A stretch of DNA of 8,787 bases from a virus (lineage: Duplodnaviria > Heunggongvirae > Uroviricota > Caudoviricetes), in the IMG/VR virus record IMGVR_UViG_2778261176_000001; one strand, written 5' to 3'. Under the pieces are notes generated by a model. It had not been told where the DNA came from, ran no database searches, and worked only from the letters and a program-made list of their open reading frames with translations. A program made the position numbers and the translations under genes. Below, in pieces: positions 4,640 to 8,417 of the stretch (within the stretch, counting starts at the first letter, position 1; every line of letters begins with the position of its first letter).

Positions 4640-4846
4640 TTACTGACCAAGCAGCGTTTTACCGCTGGTATTAGCGGTTGATGTGTCGCCCTGAGAACCG
4701 GTAAGCAGCGTAGAACTACGACCAGCAGCAGCGCGACGGCGACGTGTTTCTTCGTCGCGGGCATCAACAACGGCGGCATCCTGCTCCTGTGGTGCTGCCT
4801 GAACTTCTGGTGTTGCAGGCACTGATGGTGAGCTACCCATGCACAT
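4640..4846 (-). CDS. Hypothetical small protein (68 aa), low-complexity Ala/Thr/Ser/Gln-rich with an Arg cluster
   Basis: ATG start preceded by CGGAGTCATTGAT, a near-identical copy of the portal's translation-initiation region (CGGAGTCATTGAA); TAA stop abuts the portal SD. GC-rich like the structural genes. Could be a head-completion protein; real but unproven. Confidence 0.4.
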   Translation of the reverse strand: MCMGSSPSVPATPEVQAAPQEQDAAVVDARDEETRRRRAAAGRSSTLLTGSQGDTSTANTSGKTLLGQ

Positions 4847-4869
4847 ATCAATGACTCCGTACGCAATTA

Positions 4870-4941
4870 AATTATTACCAATTTAACCACATATGATTTA
4901 TTTATCGTAGAAGGTTGACATTTAACGCGTGAATTATTACC
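4870..4941. repeat. 10-bp direct repeat AATTATTACC (4870-4879 and 4932-4941) flanking a TTGACA hexamer (4915-4920)
   Basis: Exact 10-mer twice within an AT-rich intergenic stretch; TTGACA matches the sigma70 -35 consensus but I found no convincing -10 at 15-19 bp spacing on the plus strand. Candidate promoter/operator region. Confidence 0.35.
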
Positions 4942-5273
4942 TTTCAGGTAACTAAAGAGCTCATTCTGGTTACTAACCTGACTGGCTTGTCGTTAAATTA
5001 AACAGGTGGAGTGAGCTTTTATTTTGAGCAGTACGGCGTATGGCACATGCGCCGATAGCGGTCTGGATACGTTTAAGGGGCACCCTCCCTTGCTCGGGCA
5101 AACGAACCAGGTAGCCAGAATGTGCAAGTCGAGCGGTTTTATTCCGCGCACGGGGATTCACCATCCCGGCGATTCGGTGTGACGCCTCGGAAGAGACGAG
5201 GGTACAACGATGAGAGCATTTATGGAGCCGCGACAAAGTGTGGCGCCTTAACAGGCTAAGTGCTCTCAGCGTT

Positions 5274-5350
5274 GTGGCATTAGCTCAGTCGGACAGAGCA
5301 ACCGCCTTCTAAGCGGTTGGTCGCAGGTTCGAATCCTGCATGCCACGCCA
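5274..5350 (+). tRNA. tRNA-Arg (anticodon UCU)
   Basis: Hand-folded cloverleaf: acceptor GTGGCAT/ATGCCAC, D-stem GCTC/GAGC, anticodon stem ACCGC/GCGGT with loop CTTCTAA (anticodon TCT), 5-nt variable loop, T-arm GCAGG-TTCGAAT-CCTGC, discriminator G, encoded CCA. All stems are Watson-Crick. Confidence 0.9.
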
Positions 5351-5393
5351 GAATCACGCCTAAGGACCGTGATGCCAGAAGTTCCAGGGGCTT

Positions 5394-5438
5394 GGCGGTG
5401 ATGGTTTCCCTTGAAGGACTATCACCGCCCTTTTTACA
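5394..5438 (+). terminator. Intrinsic terminator downstream of the tRNA
   Basis: GGCGGTGAT ... ATCACCGCC (9-bp stem, 18-nt loop with internal TCC/GGA pairing) followed by CTTTTTACA. Confidence 0.6.
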
Positions 5439-5513
5439 GCAGGACGCCATTGCGATGACTTCATGCTGTAAACCCGTACAGCCACGGAAGGCATAACTCA
5501 TTGCTTCCAGTTC

Positions 5514-5537
5514 GCCCGGTTCGCCGGGCATTTTTTT
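5514..5537 (+). terminator. Terminator/attenuator hairpin immediately upstream of the 140-aa ORF's SD
   Basis: GCCCGG-TTCG-CCGGGC (6-bp GC stem, UUCG tetraloop) followed by ATTTTTTT; the U-tract runs directly into the SD AAGGTGAG of the ORF starting at 5549. Confidence 0.5.
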
Positions 5538-5548
5538 AAGGTGAGATT

Positions 5549-5971
5549 ATGAAGACAATTGATATGTTGGCTAAGTATCTAAATGAATGGCCATTAAAAT
5601 ATTCTCGTATCGTTCAGGCTGAAGACTGCATTTTTTATGGCGTTTTTGCTGGTAATGAAATGCATTACGAAGTAATTCAGAGTGAGGGACTGACCGGGTT
5701 AACTCTTAGCGAAGACCATGGTACTAGCGTTACGTTCCATGACTGGATAACAGCACAACGTTCTGAAATGGAAAAAGGCGATGTGTTTGATATTTCTCGC
5801 TCTGTTTGCGCTAAAGCAAAAAGTGATAATGATTACATGAGCGAACACTTATACAACATGAAGCTACAGTGCCTTGCCGAGGTGCTTGGTAAAAAAGCTA
5901 TTGTCGATAAACAAGGCGCCATTAGCGAAGCAAAGGCAATAAATGCTGCATTTGATGAAATTATTTTCTAG
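5549..5971 (+). CDS. Orphan hypothetical protein (140 aa), AT-rich accessory gene on the opposite strand
   Basis: ATG start with AAGGTGAG SD; followed by its own terminator. Visibly lower GC than the flanking structural genes; no signal peptide or transmembrane segment by eye; no motif I recognise; no AGA/AGG codons. Confidence 0.7.
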   Translation: MKTIDMLAKYLNEWPLKYSRIVQAEDCIFYGVFAGNEMHYEVIQSEGLTGLTLSEDHGTSVTFHDWITAQRSEMEKGDVFDISRSVCAKAKSDNDYMSEHLYNMKLQCLAEVLGKKAIVDKQGAISEAKAINAAFDEIIF

Positions 5972-5975
5972 CTCT

Positions 5976-5989
5976 GTGACATGTCACAA
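5976..5989. repeat. Perfect palindrome TGTGACATGTCACA (core GTGACATGTCAC), copy 1
   Basis: 14-bp perfect palindrome 5 nt after the stop of the 140-aa ORF and just before its terminator; the 12-bp core recurs exactly at 8427-8438. Confidence 0.8.
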
Positions 5990-5991
5990 AC

Positions 5992-6020
5992 AGCCAGCCG
6001 ATGAGCTGGCTTTGTTTTAT
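5992..6020 (+). terminator. Intrinsic terminator of the 140-aa ORF (possibly bidirectional, shared with convergent terL)
   Basis: AGCCAGC-CGATGA-GCTGGCT (7-bp stem) followed by TTGTTTTAT on the plus strand; on the minus strand the same hairpin is followed by UGUUUGUG (weaker). A second hairpin ATCCTC-ATCA-GAGGAT lies at about 6021-6036. Confidence 0.6.
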
Positions 6021-6061
6021 CCTCATCAGAGGATATCAACGACATTATCCCCACCAGCGGA

Positions 6062-7537
6062 TTAATCATAGGGATCGTAATCTGTGATGGCCTTGCCTTG
6101 CTGGTTCTGCTGCCCGGGAATTCGCAGACGCTTCGACACAGGGAAAGCAAACGTCAGCAGTAGCGCATCGCCTTTACCCGGCGAGCGCCCAAGCCGCTCC
6201 TTGATATCTTCCTTCGGTTCGATAACGATTTTACCGTCCACGCGAACTTTGTACTCTGCCGCCGACAGGTCGTCCGCTGTTTCCTGGTCATCCAGCATGC
6301 CGCCCAGCCTCAGCCATGTCTTGCATGAGTTGAACATCTCCCCACGCTTGTTAAGCATCTGCGGGTCAGTAGACGCGCCACCGAACGGAACAAGTTGCCA
6401 TGTGCGCCCCCAACCGTCACCGATTGACTTCAGACCGGTACCGTAACCAAAGTCGATGAACACTGCGTCAGCCTGATACAGGTCTTCAAAGTCAGCGATA
6501 CGCTTCGCCATAATCAGATCGTCGGTAGTCTTGTTGCCAGTCCACAGCACCTTACTGTGTAGCCCCTGCCGCAGGTATATCACCGCGTCATCAACGCCTG
6601 AATATGCCGGGTCAACACCGATTATCACCGGAGCATGCGCCACCTGCGCAGCGGTTACCACCCGTTTCATTGCCTCATCAGTAAGACCGGTAGGGATAAA
6701 CTGCAATTCAGATGCATCAGGGAATATGCCGCGCACACGGATTTTAACGAAGTCGCTGTCTTCCCCGTAGTCATCAACCCATTTCTGCAACTGCTGTTTG
6801 TTAGTGCCTTCCACCGTCCGGCTGTCAATCTGCGCACACTTCCAGCGGTGTTTATATTTGCGGAAACATTCGCGGAAACGCCCGGTGTTACGTGTAGGGT
6901 TTCCGAACGCCACCCAGATAATCTCAGTGTCTTCGTCCGTAAGCGCACCCTCAGCAACTTCCCATACCAGATCCGCAATGTTCGACGCTTCGTCGAAAAC
7001 CACGATGATGCGTTTGCGCTCGTTGTGTAGTCCGGCGAATGCCTCAGTGTTGTGCTCAGACCAGGGGATTGCGTCAGCTCGCCACCGCTTGTCGTGCCCA
7101 GGATCATTGCTGTACATCGCGGTAGCGGTACAGGTAAACCAGTCTTTCGTGATAGCAAGGTTCGACCACTTGATAATTTCCGGCCAGGTCTTCGTTCGTA
7201 GCTGGTTGTCGGTGTTGGCGGTCACCACGACCTTACAATCCTCGCAAGTGGACATGCCCCAGTTGATCAGCATTGAGATGAATGCGGATTTACCAATACC
7301 GTGACCAGAAGCGCGTGCCAGCATAAGCGGCTGATAGCGCGTCTCTGGATTCTGCAGGTGATCACGTATCTCTCGGAACGCATCAGCCTGCCACTGACGT
7401 GGGCCGGTGGCATGTGCCAGTTCAGTCCCCTCTTCCCCCCACGGGAACGCATAGAGGGCATAGCCAAGCGGATCGTGAGTGAACCCTGCAATATCCTCGA
7501 TCAACTGCTCTTCAGGAGATAACGCTGTATCTGTCAC
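6062..7537 (-). CDS. terL: Terminase large subunit (ATPase + nuclease)
   Basis: 491-aa ORF; Walker A-like SGHGIGKS, Walker B-like IIVVFDEAS, C-terminal acidic nuclease-like motifs (IIGVDPAYSG, FIDFGYG); GTG start overlaps the terS stop (GTGA) with AGGA upstream. Confidence 0.85.
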   Translation of the reverse strand: MTDTALSPEEQLIEDIAGFTHDPLGYALYAFPWGEEGTELAHATGPRQWQADAFREIRDHLQNPETRYQPLMLARASGHGIGKSAFISMLINWGMSTCEDCKVVVTANTDNQLRTKTWPEIIKWSNLAITKDWFTCTATAMYSNDPGHDKRWRADAIPWSEHNTEAFAGLHNERKRIIVVFDEASNIADLVWEVAEGALTDEDTEIIWVAFGNPTRNTGRFRECFRKYKHRWKCAQIDSRTVEGTNKQQLQKWVDDYGEDSDFVKIRVRGIFPDASELQFIPTGLTDEAMKRVVTAAQVAHAPVIIGVDPAYSGVDDAVIYLRQGLHSKVLWTGNKTTDDLIMAKRIADFEDLYQADAVFIDFGYGTGLKSIGDGWGRTWQLVPFGGASTDPQMLNKRGEMFNSCKTWLRLGGMLDDQETADDLSAAEYKVRVDGKIVIEPKEDIKERLGRSPGKGDALLLTFAFPVSKRLRIPGQQNQQGKAITDYDPYD

Positions 7538-8130
7538 TGATTACAATCCTGACGTTCTTTGAGTCGCTTCCTGGCTGCTGCTATGCGATCAGCAATTGTC
7601 ACATTCACATTAACATCCAGGCGTTCTTTGAATGCATTGACATCGACGTGCTTACCAATCAGCTCAAGGTTCTTCACCTTGTCAGGCCATTTAATTTTTT
7701 TGAGGATTGTCTCTATCGAATCCTCGTTCATGTTCATGATGGTCGATGACAGATCAAAGCCGCTAAGCGTAGTGCGCCAGATTTTCGGCCACTCGCGGAT
7801 TGGCTTAAGGCTCCCATCGTCGTTGAGGATATCAATCACGTCCATCTGGTCGATCTCCACCAGGCGCATGAGAACGTAATCAGCACTGACACGCATTCGT
7901 TTGTTGCGCTCTTCCATCAGCTCGGCAATCCGTTTTTGAATGCGTTCATCGCGCATCATGACACTGGCTTTAACTGCCGCTGTATTTGGGGAGAATCCTG
8001 CGTTAATCGCTGCCTGAGTCTGGTTTTCAGGCGTTTTGATGTATGACTGGCAATAAGCCTCCTGCATTGCTGTGAGCGGCTTAAATTGCGTTGATTTGCG
8101 TTTATAGGTTTTAGGTTCAGCAGGCATCAT
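7534..8130 (-). CDS. terS: Terminase small subunit
   Basis: Directly upstream of and overlapping terL. The N-terminal region (KPLTAMQEAYCQSYIKTPENQTQAAINAGFSPNTAAVKAS) has the LTxxQxxFxxxY pattern of small terminase subunits as recalled from memory. The ORF-track start at 8208 is a TTG whose first 26 codons would translate a terminator hairpin and tandem repeats; I place the start at the ATG pair 8125-8130 (GGTGG upstream). The ATG at 8137-8139 is also possible. Confidence 0.7.
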   Translation of the reverse strand: MMPAEPKTYKRKSTQFKPLTAMQEAYCQSYIKTPENQTQAAINAGFSPNTAAVKASVMMRDERIQKRIAELMEERNKRMRVSADYVLMRLVEIDQMDVIDILNDDGSLKPIREWPKIWRTTLSGFDLSSTIMNMNEDSIETILKKIKWPDKVKNLELIGKHVDVNAFKERLDVNVNVTIADRIAAARKRLKERQDCNQ

Positions 8131-8138
8131 AACCACCA

Positions 8139-8169
8139 TGGTAATAGTTACCGTTGTGGTAATAGTACC
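8139..8169. repeat. Tandem near-palindromic repeats GGTAATAGTTACC / GGTAATAGTACC (10-bp exact direct repeat TGGTAATAGT, 18 bp apart)
   Basis: Read directly: 8139-8152 TGGTAATAGTTACC, spacer GTTG, 8157-8169 TGGTAATAGTACC; each unit has inverted arms GGTA(A)/(T)TACC. Located between a minus-strand terminator and the terS start. Candidate operator or TerS-binding (cosB/pac-like) sites. Confidence 0.55.
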
Positions 8170-8170
8170 A

Positions 8171-8199
8171 TGCAAAATAAAGCCGCCATAGTTGGCGGC
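8171..8199 (-). terminator. Intrinsic terminator between the 70-aa gene and terS
   Basis: Minus-strand RNA: GCCGCCA-ACUA-UGGCGGC (7-bp GC-rich stem) followed by UUUAUUUUG. Confidence 0.6.
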
Positions 8200-8204
8200 A
8201 GTAT

Positions 8205-8417
8205 TCAAAGTCCATCAAATTCATCGTAAAAACTCTCGTCAAGATACCCTTCCCATTTACCGCGAATGAAAATTACATCCTCGCCGCAAGGGTGCTGACT
8301 GTCGATAACTATATCCCTCCTGGCGCAACCATACTTATGCATGAGAAATTTAACCTCTTTCGGAAAATTTGCTGAGTTATCTCTCATATCTTCAAGGTCG
8401 TAGCGTATTTTTGGCAT
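8205..8417 (-). CDS. Hypothetical small protein (about 70 aa), AT-rich
   Basis: ORF-track ORF 8205..8438 starts at a GTG formed by the palindrome itself; the ATG at 8415-8417 is preceded by GAAGGTG and is the more likely start (MPKIRYDLEDM...). AT-rich relative to neighbours; function unknown. Confidence 0.5.
   Translation of the reverse strand: MPKIRYDLEDMRDNSANFPKEVKFLMHKYGCARRDIVIDSQHPCGEDVIFIRGKWEGYLDESFYDEFDGL

Follow-up and report, generated by a model that had tools for sequence, protein, structure and literature searches.

The stretch of DNA analyzed here (IMG/VR record IMGVR_UViG_2778261176_000001, a virus of the Caudoviricetes; its full length of 8,787 nucleotides (nt) is called the window) carries a tRNA-Arg(UCU) gene of a phiV10-like phage that almost certainly works as a tRNA and whose most likely role, held with moderate confidence, would be extra decoding of AGA/AGG codons in lytic growth. 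On its own this tRNA adds little, being one more case of a temperate phage with a rare-codon tRNA-Arg(UCU), and the finding is of low interest and already known. The part worth pursuing is the RNA to which it is coupled and the slot that it occupies, since the tRNA is linked to an abundant, strongly covarying and unannotated RNA that is common to three unrelated temperate-phage types.

ARAGORN found a single tRNA in the window, a tRNA-Arg with anticodon tct at 5274-5350 (+), and the Rfam tRNA model RF00005 (gathering score = 29) matched 5274-5347 from model position 1 to 71 of 71 with 73.3 bits (E = 5e-15) and no non-canonical pair flagged in the alignment. The host gene argU reached 72.1 bits in the same search. 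The original prediction of a canonical fold with encoded CCA, functional in appearance, was thus borne out, and the check for a pseudogene returned an intact tRNA with a score on a par with argU.

5274-5350, + strand: tRNA-Arg(UCU), 77 nt, CCA encoded (ARAGORN; Rfam, 73.3 bits; five compensatory stem pairs with respect to argU)

The acceptor stem comprises 7 base pairs (bp; GUGGCAU/AUGCCAC) and is followed by the discriminator G73 and the encoded CCA; the anticodon loop is CUUCUAA (U33, U34-C35-U36, A37), the T-arm is GCAGG-UUCGAAU-CCUGC, and A20 in the D-loop, G18-G19 and the T-loop are all present. The identity set of the E. coli arginyl-tRNA synthetase (ArgRS) consists of A20, C35, U36 and G or A at 73, and A37 is a requirement for N6-threonylcarbamoyladenosine (t6A). 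All four identity elements (A20, C35, U36, G73) as well as A37 occur in the phage tRNA, which is accordingly predicted from these elements to be chargeable by E. coli ArgRS and, as far as sequence can tell, almost certainly works as an elongator tRNA-Arg(UCU).

Compared with argU (dnaY) of E. coli K-12, the phage tRNA is identical at 63 of 77 positions (82%) and differs at 14. Ten of the differences lie in stems and form five compensatory pairs (2-71, 4-69, 6-67, 29-41 and 30-40), and the remaining four are unpaired positions of the D-loop and variable region. The two genes have the same anticodon loop and T-arm, so that the earlier statement that the acceptor and anticodon stems differ from argU while the loop and T-arm are shared holds, with every stem change compensatory. 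Anticodon, length, encoded CCA, G73 and A20 are likewise common to the two, but argU is a chromosomal gene and the phage tRNA belongs to a phage accessory unit. Judged by the compensatory stem changes, the scores and its conserved position, the phage tRNA is under selection.

It is barely credible that the gene is a pseudogene, the remnant of an attachment site or a piece of host DNA. Phages such as epsilon34 do attach at argU, and the DLP12 prophage adjoins argU in K-12; however, the phage gene is a full-length tRNA that scores as high as argU, and with only 82% identity and compensatory stem changes throughout it is not the chromosomal gene, as the comparison proposed in the original prediction was meant to establish. 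In E. coli genomes without a prophage copy the best match is argU itself, at 84.5% over positions 7-77. Additionally, the integrase gene lies ~24 kb from the tRNA in phiV10, with attP near int, and attB of the relative vB_EcoP_ZX5 is the 3' end of guaA (PMC9782041). The divergence from argU, the survey of E. coli genomes, the distance to int and the attB in guaA together refute a host origin or an attachment-site remnant, and the earlier view that this complete gene is not an attachment site stands.

A scan of genome contigs with the 26-nt anticodon arm gave housekeeping tRNAs from many phyla; among the matches listed, at most 66 of 77 positions were identical and no donor genome for the tRNA was found. 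The tRNA-Arg of Synechococcus cyanophages (e.g., S-RIM2, L011:57-129; L-numbers are our own labels for loci) is 92% identical to window positions 5278-5342 (tRNA positions 5-69) and is closer to the phage tRNA than the tRNA-Arg(UCU) of Shiga toxin (Stx) phages is. This similarity arises because both keep a consensus bacterial core; common descent of the whole gene was rejected, as the acceptor stems differ.

The window covers the head module of a Uetakevirus (a temperate podovirus) of the phiV10/epsilon15 type. Its identity to phiV10-like coliphages such as HEMP4, PAS61, phiv142-3, TL-2011b and phiV10 is 96-98%, compared with 78-82% for epsilon15, Tyrion and other Uetakeviruses. The genes on its - strand encode the small terminase, the large terminase, a gp3-like protein, the portal, a Bbp19-like protein, a protease, the GP7 major capsid protein and a Bbp16-like protein. 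The tRNA lies on the + strand, antisense to these head genes, in a 1.2-kb accessory gap bounded by the gp3-like gene (4640-4846, -) and the large terminase gene (6062-7537, -). Its placement inside the head-gene module was therefore right as to physical position, but the gene occupies the opposite strand and its own 1.2-kb accessory unit. Neither the strand, nor the candidate promoter and the terminators dedicated to the unit, nor the conserved RNA just upstream had been noticed in the original prediction. The elements of the unit, in order along the window, are the following.

4915-4943, + strand: candidate sigma-70 promoter, with -35 TTGACA at 4915-4920, a 17-nt spacer and -10 TACCTT at 4938-4943, which fits TAnnnT (sequence and conservation)
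4937-4951, no strand: operator-like palindrome TTACCTTTCAGGTAA, overlapping the candidate -10
4937-4951, 8130-8144 and 8148-8162, no strand: copies of the palindrome in the window (TTACC-N5-GGTAA scan)
5034-5201, + strand: core of a structured non-coding RNA, four helices and a pseudoknot (covariation)
5212-5267, + strand: closing helix formed by 5212-5222 and 5257-5267, with a variable insert between its two strands; 6 nt separate it from the tRNA
5268-5273, + strand: 5' leader of the tRNA, AGCGUU, 6 nt; GCGTT is kept in tRNA-bearing and tRNA-less relatives
5353-5373, + strand: 3' hairpin ATCACG-N9-CGTGAT, AATCACGCC; present after the slot both with the tRNA and in many module versions (see below), including 65FD and KpST11
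5394-5437, + strand: intrinsic terminator T1, a 14-bp stem and then a T run (terminator scan, 5394-5429); the block is kept in all relatives
5514-5537, + strand: intrinsic terminator T2, GCCCGG-TTCG-CCGGGC and then T7 (terminator scan, 5514-5529)
5549-5971, + strand: accessory gene, 140 amino acids (aa), G+C 0.39, PHROG 4846 (function unassigned there), E = 2e-88
5992-6011, + strand: terminator after the accessory gene (terminator scan)

The block at 4849-4954 is conserved in 7/7 Uetakeviruses aligned, and TTGACA is invariant in it. TTACC-N5-GGTAA with at most one mismatch occurs three times in the window (two perfect copies and one with one mismatch) vs 0.12 expected; perfect copies number eight in phiV10 and several in each of the other four Uetakevirus genomes scanned, where the palindromes lie on either side of the repressor gene and ahead of transcription units. 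No copy occurred in a 50-kb sample of K-12. Equivalent sites are annotated as repressor-binding in the epsilon15 GenBank record. TTACC-N5-GGTAA is thus a candidate operator for the phage repressor, dispersed much as the P1 C1 operators are. Since the palindrome lies over the candidate -10, repression in the lysogen is predicted, and we infer a repressor-controlled transcript that would be made on induction or infection.

The proposed sequence of events is as follows. Transcription of a small accessory unit, antisense to the head genes and with the tRNA in its 3' part, would start at the sigma-70-type promoter whose -10 is overlapped by the candidate repressor operator, pass a ~240-nt pseudoknotted RNA, the 6-nt spacer and the tRNA, and stop at the two intrinsic terminators. 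RNase P and 3' trimming would free the tRNA, and the RNase P cut after 5273 would also form the 3' end of the upstream RNA. This would happen after derepression (induction or infection) and not in the quiescent lysogen, and the host ArgRS would then charge the tRNA, which would add AGA decoding and, through the usual modified U34, AGG decoding too.

The codon use of the phage agrees in part with such a role. Counted over the annotated genes of phiV10 and the 50-kb K-12 sample, AGA reaches 7.1 per 1,000 codons in the phage vs 1.5 in the host (4.7-fold) and AGG 4.5 vs 0.7 (6.6-fold), and the AGA codons of phiV10 concentrate in p15-p20, in the tail fibre (10 AGA) and in early genes; tail, ejection-protein and tailspike genes are among those that hold them. 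Rare-codon supplementation, which the original prediction proposed together with a count of AGA/AGG in the late genes, is thus plausible and partly supported, but the enrichment does not extend to the head genes around the tRNA or set the tRNA-bearing phages apart.

Several observations weigh against the decoding role and the unit as described. The nine genes of the window contain zero AGA and only three AGG codons. When open reading frames (ORFs) were called by one procedure in six genomes, AGA per 1,000 codons was 7.07 in phiV10, 7.01 in PAS61 and 5.82 in SPN9TCW, which bear the tRNA, and 4.19 in one relative without it, 6.51 in 65FD and 7.42 in Tyrion, both also tRNA-less. As AGA use is alike in the tRNA-less relatives, demand does not predict the presence of the tRNA, which is therefore dispensable. 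epsilon15 is without the tRNA and without most of the upstream core RNA. Additionally, a stricter scan for consensus promoters did not list the TTGACA/TACCTT site, and the palindrome at 4937-4951 could instead, or also, control the divergent - strand genes. On these counts the genus as a whole is AGA-rich and the tRNA an optional addition, so that supplementation offers a possible benefit, yet no explanation of why the gene is present: sister phages with an equal AGA load do without it.

Uetakeviruses with or without the tRNA share a conserved stretch of about 240 nt (about 5031-5268, +) that separates the promoter block from the tRNA. For a five-helix structure that includes a pseudoknot, with 27 proposed pairs scored over 58 distinct sequences, standard pairs fill 95.3% of the cells, vs 29-54% in controls with a slid 3' partner; compensatory changes affect 13 of the 27 pairs (147 cells), and the covariation score was reached by 0/500 shuffles. 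The closing helix has at least 7 bp (mostly 9 bp) in 90 of 99 distinct instances, built from many different sequences, and also appears in the minimum-free-energy fold (z-score -2.1). A protein-coding origin of the region was rejected, because 1-nt indels lie inside conserved blocks, the helix changes are compensatory and the ATG at 5210 is not conserved.

The same RNA occurs at about 80% identity in unrelated temperate phages, namely the lambdoid mEp460, cdtI and Stx2c and the P1/P7 phages. In mEp460 the element is found just downstream of a cI-like S24 repressor gene, after operator-like palindromes, and in P1 and P7 it occupies the part of the C1-controlled ban operon from directly after trnI to before ban. 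Of 5,426 complete E. coli genomes, 1,839 contain it, with 2,471 places in all (551 on plasmids), and the records inspected annotate no feature there. Rfam 15 (gathering score, or E <= 1-5) assigned no family to the window RNA, the non-tRNA matches in 4840-6070 being far below their gathering scores, nor to the homologous P1, mEp460 and Stx2c elements. The lambdoid carriers also hold the C4 antisense RNA and isrK ~2 kb away, near an antirepressor-type gene (L134:206-394, L135:276-464); the Rfam C4 and isrK models matched neither the element nor its 3' module, though true copies were found in the same loci. HK022, the phage with the put antiterminator RNAs, has no sequence similarity to the conserved RNA in its genome. 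In the sequences and positions compared, the RNA sits downstream of repressor-controlled promoters and upstream of terminators, a put-compatible position. Literature searches by exact sequence strings, by the P1 ban/trnI region and by the SPC32H operators gave nothing useful on the element. We could not find the RNA described in Rfam or the searchable literature, which is not proof of novelty; its core is a candidate for early regulation, for antitermination, for antisense action on the late transcript or for a part in anti-defence.

Adjacent to this RNA lies a slot of variable content. An adjacent same-strand tRNA was present in 45 of the 127 instances scanned, either tRNA-Arg(tct) at a fixed downstream offset or a P1-type tRNA(cat) immediately upstream; the fixed downstream tRNA-Arg(tct) accounts for 28/127. 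Past the closing helix and GCGUU, the 5' end of tRNA-Arg follows in 29 instances, and at least 55 others contain instead a module of 78-200 nt closed by GUUGUGGUG...CACCACAAC. This module is often followed by C-CCA and then by a AAUCACGCC hairpin, as after the tRNA. The modules located in tRNA-less relatives are these.

L005:5537-5912: slot module
L134:2720-3100: slot module
L135:2720-3100: slot module
L006:5772-6010: slot module
L007:6185-6640: slot module
L223:1077-1203: slot module

In its closing stem the module is similar to the acceptor stem of a tRNA. Against the Rfam tRNA model the L223 module reaches 43.9 bits, above the gathering score, despite an insert of ~50 nt, and in the ARAGORN drawing its acceptor stem is UUGUGGU/ACCACAA, with C-CCA behind it. 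With introns allowed, ARAGORN called it a "tRNA-Met with intron", an anticodon assignment that was not trusted; the Rfam score was relied on. The outer four acceptor pairs of the window tRNA (G1-C72, U2-A71, G3-C70, G4-C69) are the GUGG/CCAC of the module. Part of the divergence of the acceptor stem from argU therefore has a context-based explanation, although a slot-based origin, drawn from four pairs, is suggestive and not proven. Seen in this context, the tRNA is optional, swappable cargo: relatives with equal AGA use carry a tRNA-like module in exactly the same slot.

Taken together, these observations lead us to propose, tentatively and as a quite possible reading, that the tRNA is the interchangeable 3' module of an undescribed non-coding RNA unit of temperate enterobacterial phages. 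The unit would consist of a repressor-controlled promoter, the ~240-nt pseudoknotted RNA (present in about one third of complete E. coli genomes) and a slot with a true tRNA (Arg-UCU in the window), with the one insert-bearing tRNA-like gene that exceeds the Rfam tRNA threshold or with a stem-closed tRNA-like module; tRNA-processing enzymes would mature both RNAs, and GUGG/CCAC would reflect the slot and not evasion. If true, this would mean a new family of phage non-coding RNA and a new way for phages to acquire tRNAs.

Three other explanations of the tRNA were weighed against decoding. The tRNA could be mainly structural, its cloverleaf recruiting RNase P so that the cut sets the 3' end of the upstream RNA, a drop-in for the tRNA-like module with decoding as a by-product. 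This agrees with a tRNA that begins 6 nt past the closing helix of the conserved RNA, with the sharing of one slot between the two kinds of content, with the tRNA score of the L223 module, with the outer acceptor pairs common to both and with the P1 RNA, which begins right after the CCA of trnI. Yet every decoding feature is kept, from the anticodon loop to the ArgRS identity elements, which a pure processing signal would not need; P1 has the RNA without a 3' module, and a four-base acceptor match could be chance. We therefore regard a purely structural role as unlikely. Lysogenic conversion, in which the prophage tRNA would be expressed constitutively and aid host translation of AGA/AGG-rich acquired genes, is very unlikely: about 9% of complete E. 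coli genomes do carry the tRNA as a prophage gene, its own candidate promoter and terminators are moron-like, and Stx phages have a tRNA-Arg(UCU) beside stx, but the repressor-type palindrome over the candidate -10 predicts repression in the lysogen and the homologous P1 RNA unit lies in the C1-repressed ban operon.

Distinctly unlikely is the counter-defence role suggested in the original prediction, by which the phage tRNA would replace a host tRNA-Arg(UCU) destroyed by a tRNA-targeting nuclease or toxin, its differing stems conferring resistance. Acceptor and anticodon stems unlike those of argU are in line with it, as is an expression that is probably early and repressor-controlled, and there are precedents in E. 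coli: a phage tRNA-Tyr rescues infection from a tRNA-targeting system (PMC11555353), a phage tRNA-Thr rescues infection against P2-OLD, and Arg tRNAs are among those that P2-OLD cuts in vitro (PMC12445682). However, evasive phage tRNAs are described in PMC10264068 as bearing anticodon-loop mutations with respect to the host isoacceptor, at nuclease-recognition positions, and this signature is absent from the phage tRNA, whose loop CUUCUAA is identical to that of argU. Housekeeping tRNAs of Actinomycetota, Cyanobacteria, Chloroflexota, Armatimonadota and Bacillota have the same 26-nt anticodon arm, the commonest such form across phyla among the matches listed, and it also occurs in cyanophage tRNA-Arg; by this comparison it is ordinary, not exotic. 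P2-OLD is an E. coli anticodon-stem nuclease that cleaves tRNAs with A37 at paired CNG motifs (28-30 and 40-42), on the 3' side of the C, and resistant phage tRNAs have lost the paired motif (C28-N-G30 / C40-N-G42) and have a shortened anticodon stem (PMC12445682). The test of evasion came out negative: the phage tRNA has the motif (C28-C29-G30 / C40-G41-G42) plus A37 and argU, with CGA/UCG at the same positions, does not, so that on sequence alone the phage tRNA and not argU is the better predicted P2-OLD-type substrate. In our judgement, a temperate phage with just one tRNA is not typical of a counter-defence strategy, and the literature search surfaced no defence system specific for tRNA-Arg(UCU). 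The claim that a divergent anticodon stem fits nuclease evasion thus fails, with a loop equal to that of argU, an arm of common bacterial form and the P2-OLD motif present; the specific support cited for an anti-nuclease reading is removed and this reading is not supported, though other nucleases could be involved.

Additional decoding of AGA/AGG remains the preferred role, and several known systems resemble the unit in part. Stx phages carry, upstream of stx2, a cluster of tRNA-Ile, tRNA-Arg "codon CGA" and tRNA-Arg "codon AGA" (ileZ-argN-argO in the original prediction). Their tRNA-Arg(UCU) is likewise carried by a temperate coliphage in a moron-like arrangement, but it is a separate lineage, with 84-86% identity over positions 7-63 only and different acceptor, anticodon and T stems, and it is located downstream of the late terminator tR', beside stx, whereas the window tRNA is antisense in the head module. 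The P1 ban operon (C1-controlled promoter, tRNA-Asn, tRNA-Thr, tciABC, trnI, ban) is also a repressor-controlled unit that mixes tRNAs with the conserved RNA (between trnI and ban, about 79-80% identity); unlike the window unit, the tRNA there precedes the RNA and the unit runs on into protein-coding genes. P1 trnI and ban were scored as non-essential in a CRISPR interference (CRISPRi) screen (PMC10695390). Given the losses in epsilon15 and the P1 CRISPRi result, the RNA-tRNA unit is accessory under laboratory conditions. The C4 RNA of P1/P7 and the CI RNA of P4 are phage regulatory RNAs processed by RNase P, and stable RNAs occur in the T4 tRNA cluster; small as well, and either made together with tRNAs in one transcript or dependent on tRNA-processing enzymes for their maturation, these RNAs may be regarded as functional analogues of the RNA-tRNA coupling in the window.

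A copy of the tRNA at 90% identity or more is present in about 510 of the 5,426 complete E. coli genome records (~9%), and the same tRNA is found at the same place in phiV10, phiv142-3 and SPN9TCW. The tRNA-Arg(tct) of the Uetakeviruses (phiV10-like and SPN1S-like) is the same gene at the same site between the terminase and portal genes, with 72-77 of 77 positions identical; the phiV10 copy differs in having U17 in place of the C17 of the window. The gene itself is already known and present in GenBank, and its public annotation is uneven. A tRNA-Arg is annotated in phiv142-3, the O157 typing phages 9 and 10, SPN9TCW and SPC32H and, by PGAP, in E. coli prophages; the phiV10 RefSeq and PAS61 records do not annotate it, and the phiv142-3 record places it on the wrong strand and shortens it to 69 nt. 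The vB_EcoP_ZX5 paper mentions, without analysis, "one tRNA" in the genome, which may be this gene (PMC9782041). The phiV10 record has instead a coding sequence, PhiV10p04, across the tRNA.

5280-5531, - strand: 83-aa ORF equivalent to PhiV10p04, spanning the tRNA and both terminators on the opposite strand (phiV10: L002:5725-5976)

Judged by this overlap, PhiV10p04 and its 83-aa equivalent in the window are probably a mis-annotation and not a gene.

The 140-aa accessory protein matched no Pfam family. At the same spot the relatives have genes of PHROG 322, 11227 ("protease") or 18493, or a DUF551 protein in Tyrion, and phiv142-3 has none; by this comparison, 5549-5971 is a variable accessory-gene site. 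The small-terminase ORF (7534-8208, -; 224 aa) has a TTG start at 8208, as in the phiV10 RefSeq record, and its first 80 nt hold an intrinsic terminator and two operator palindromes; the annotation of phiv142-3 and epsilon15 points to an ATG at about 8130 or 8127 as the probable true start. Finally, the large terminase gene of 65FD (L259:16741-19191) has 2,451 nt vs 1,476 nt in the window and the portal gene of PAS61 (L260:15937-18144) 2,208 nt vs 1,680 nt, lengths that suggest in-frame insertions, which we would guess to be inteins or homing elements.

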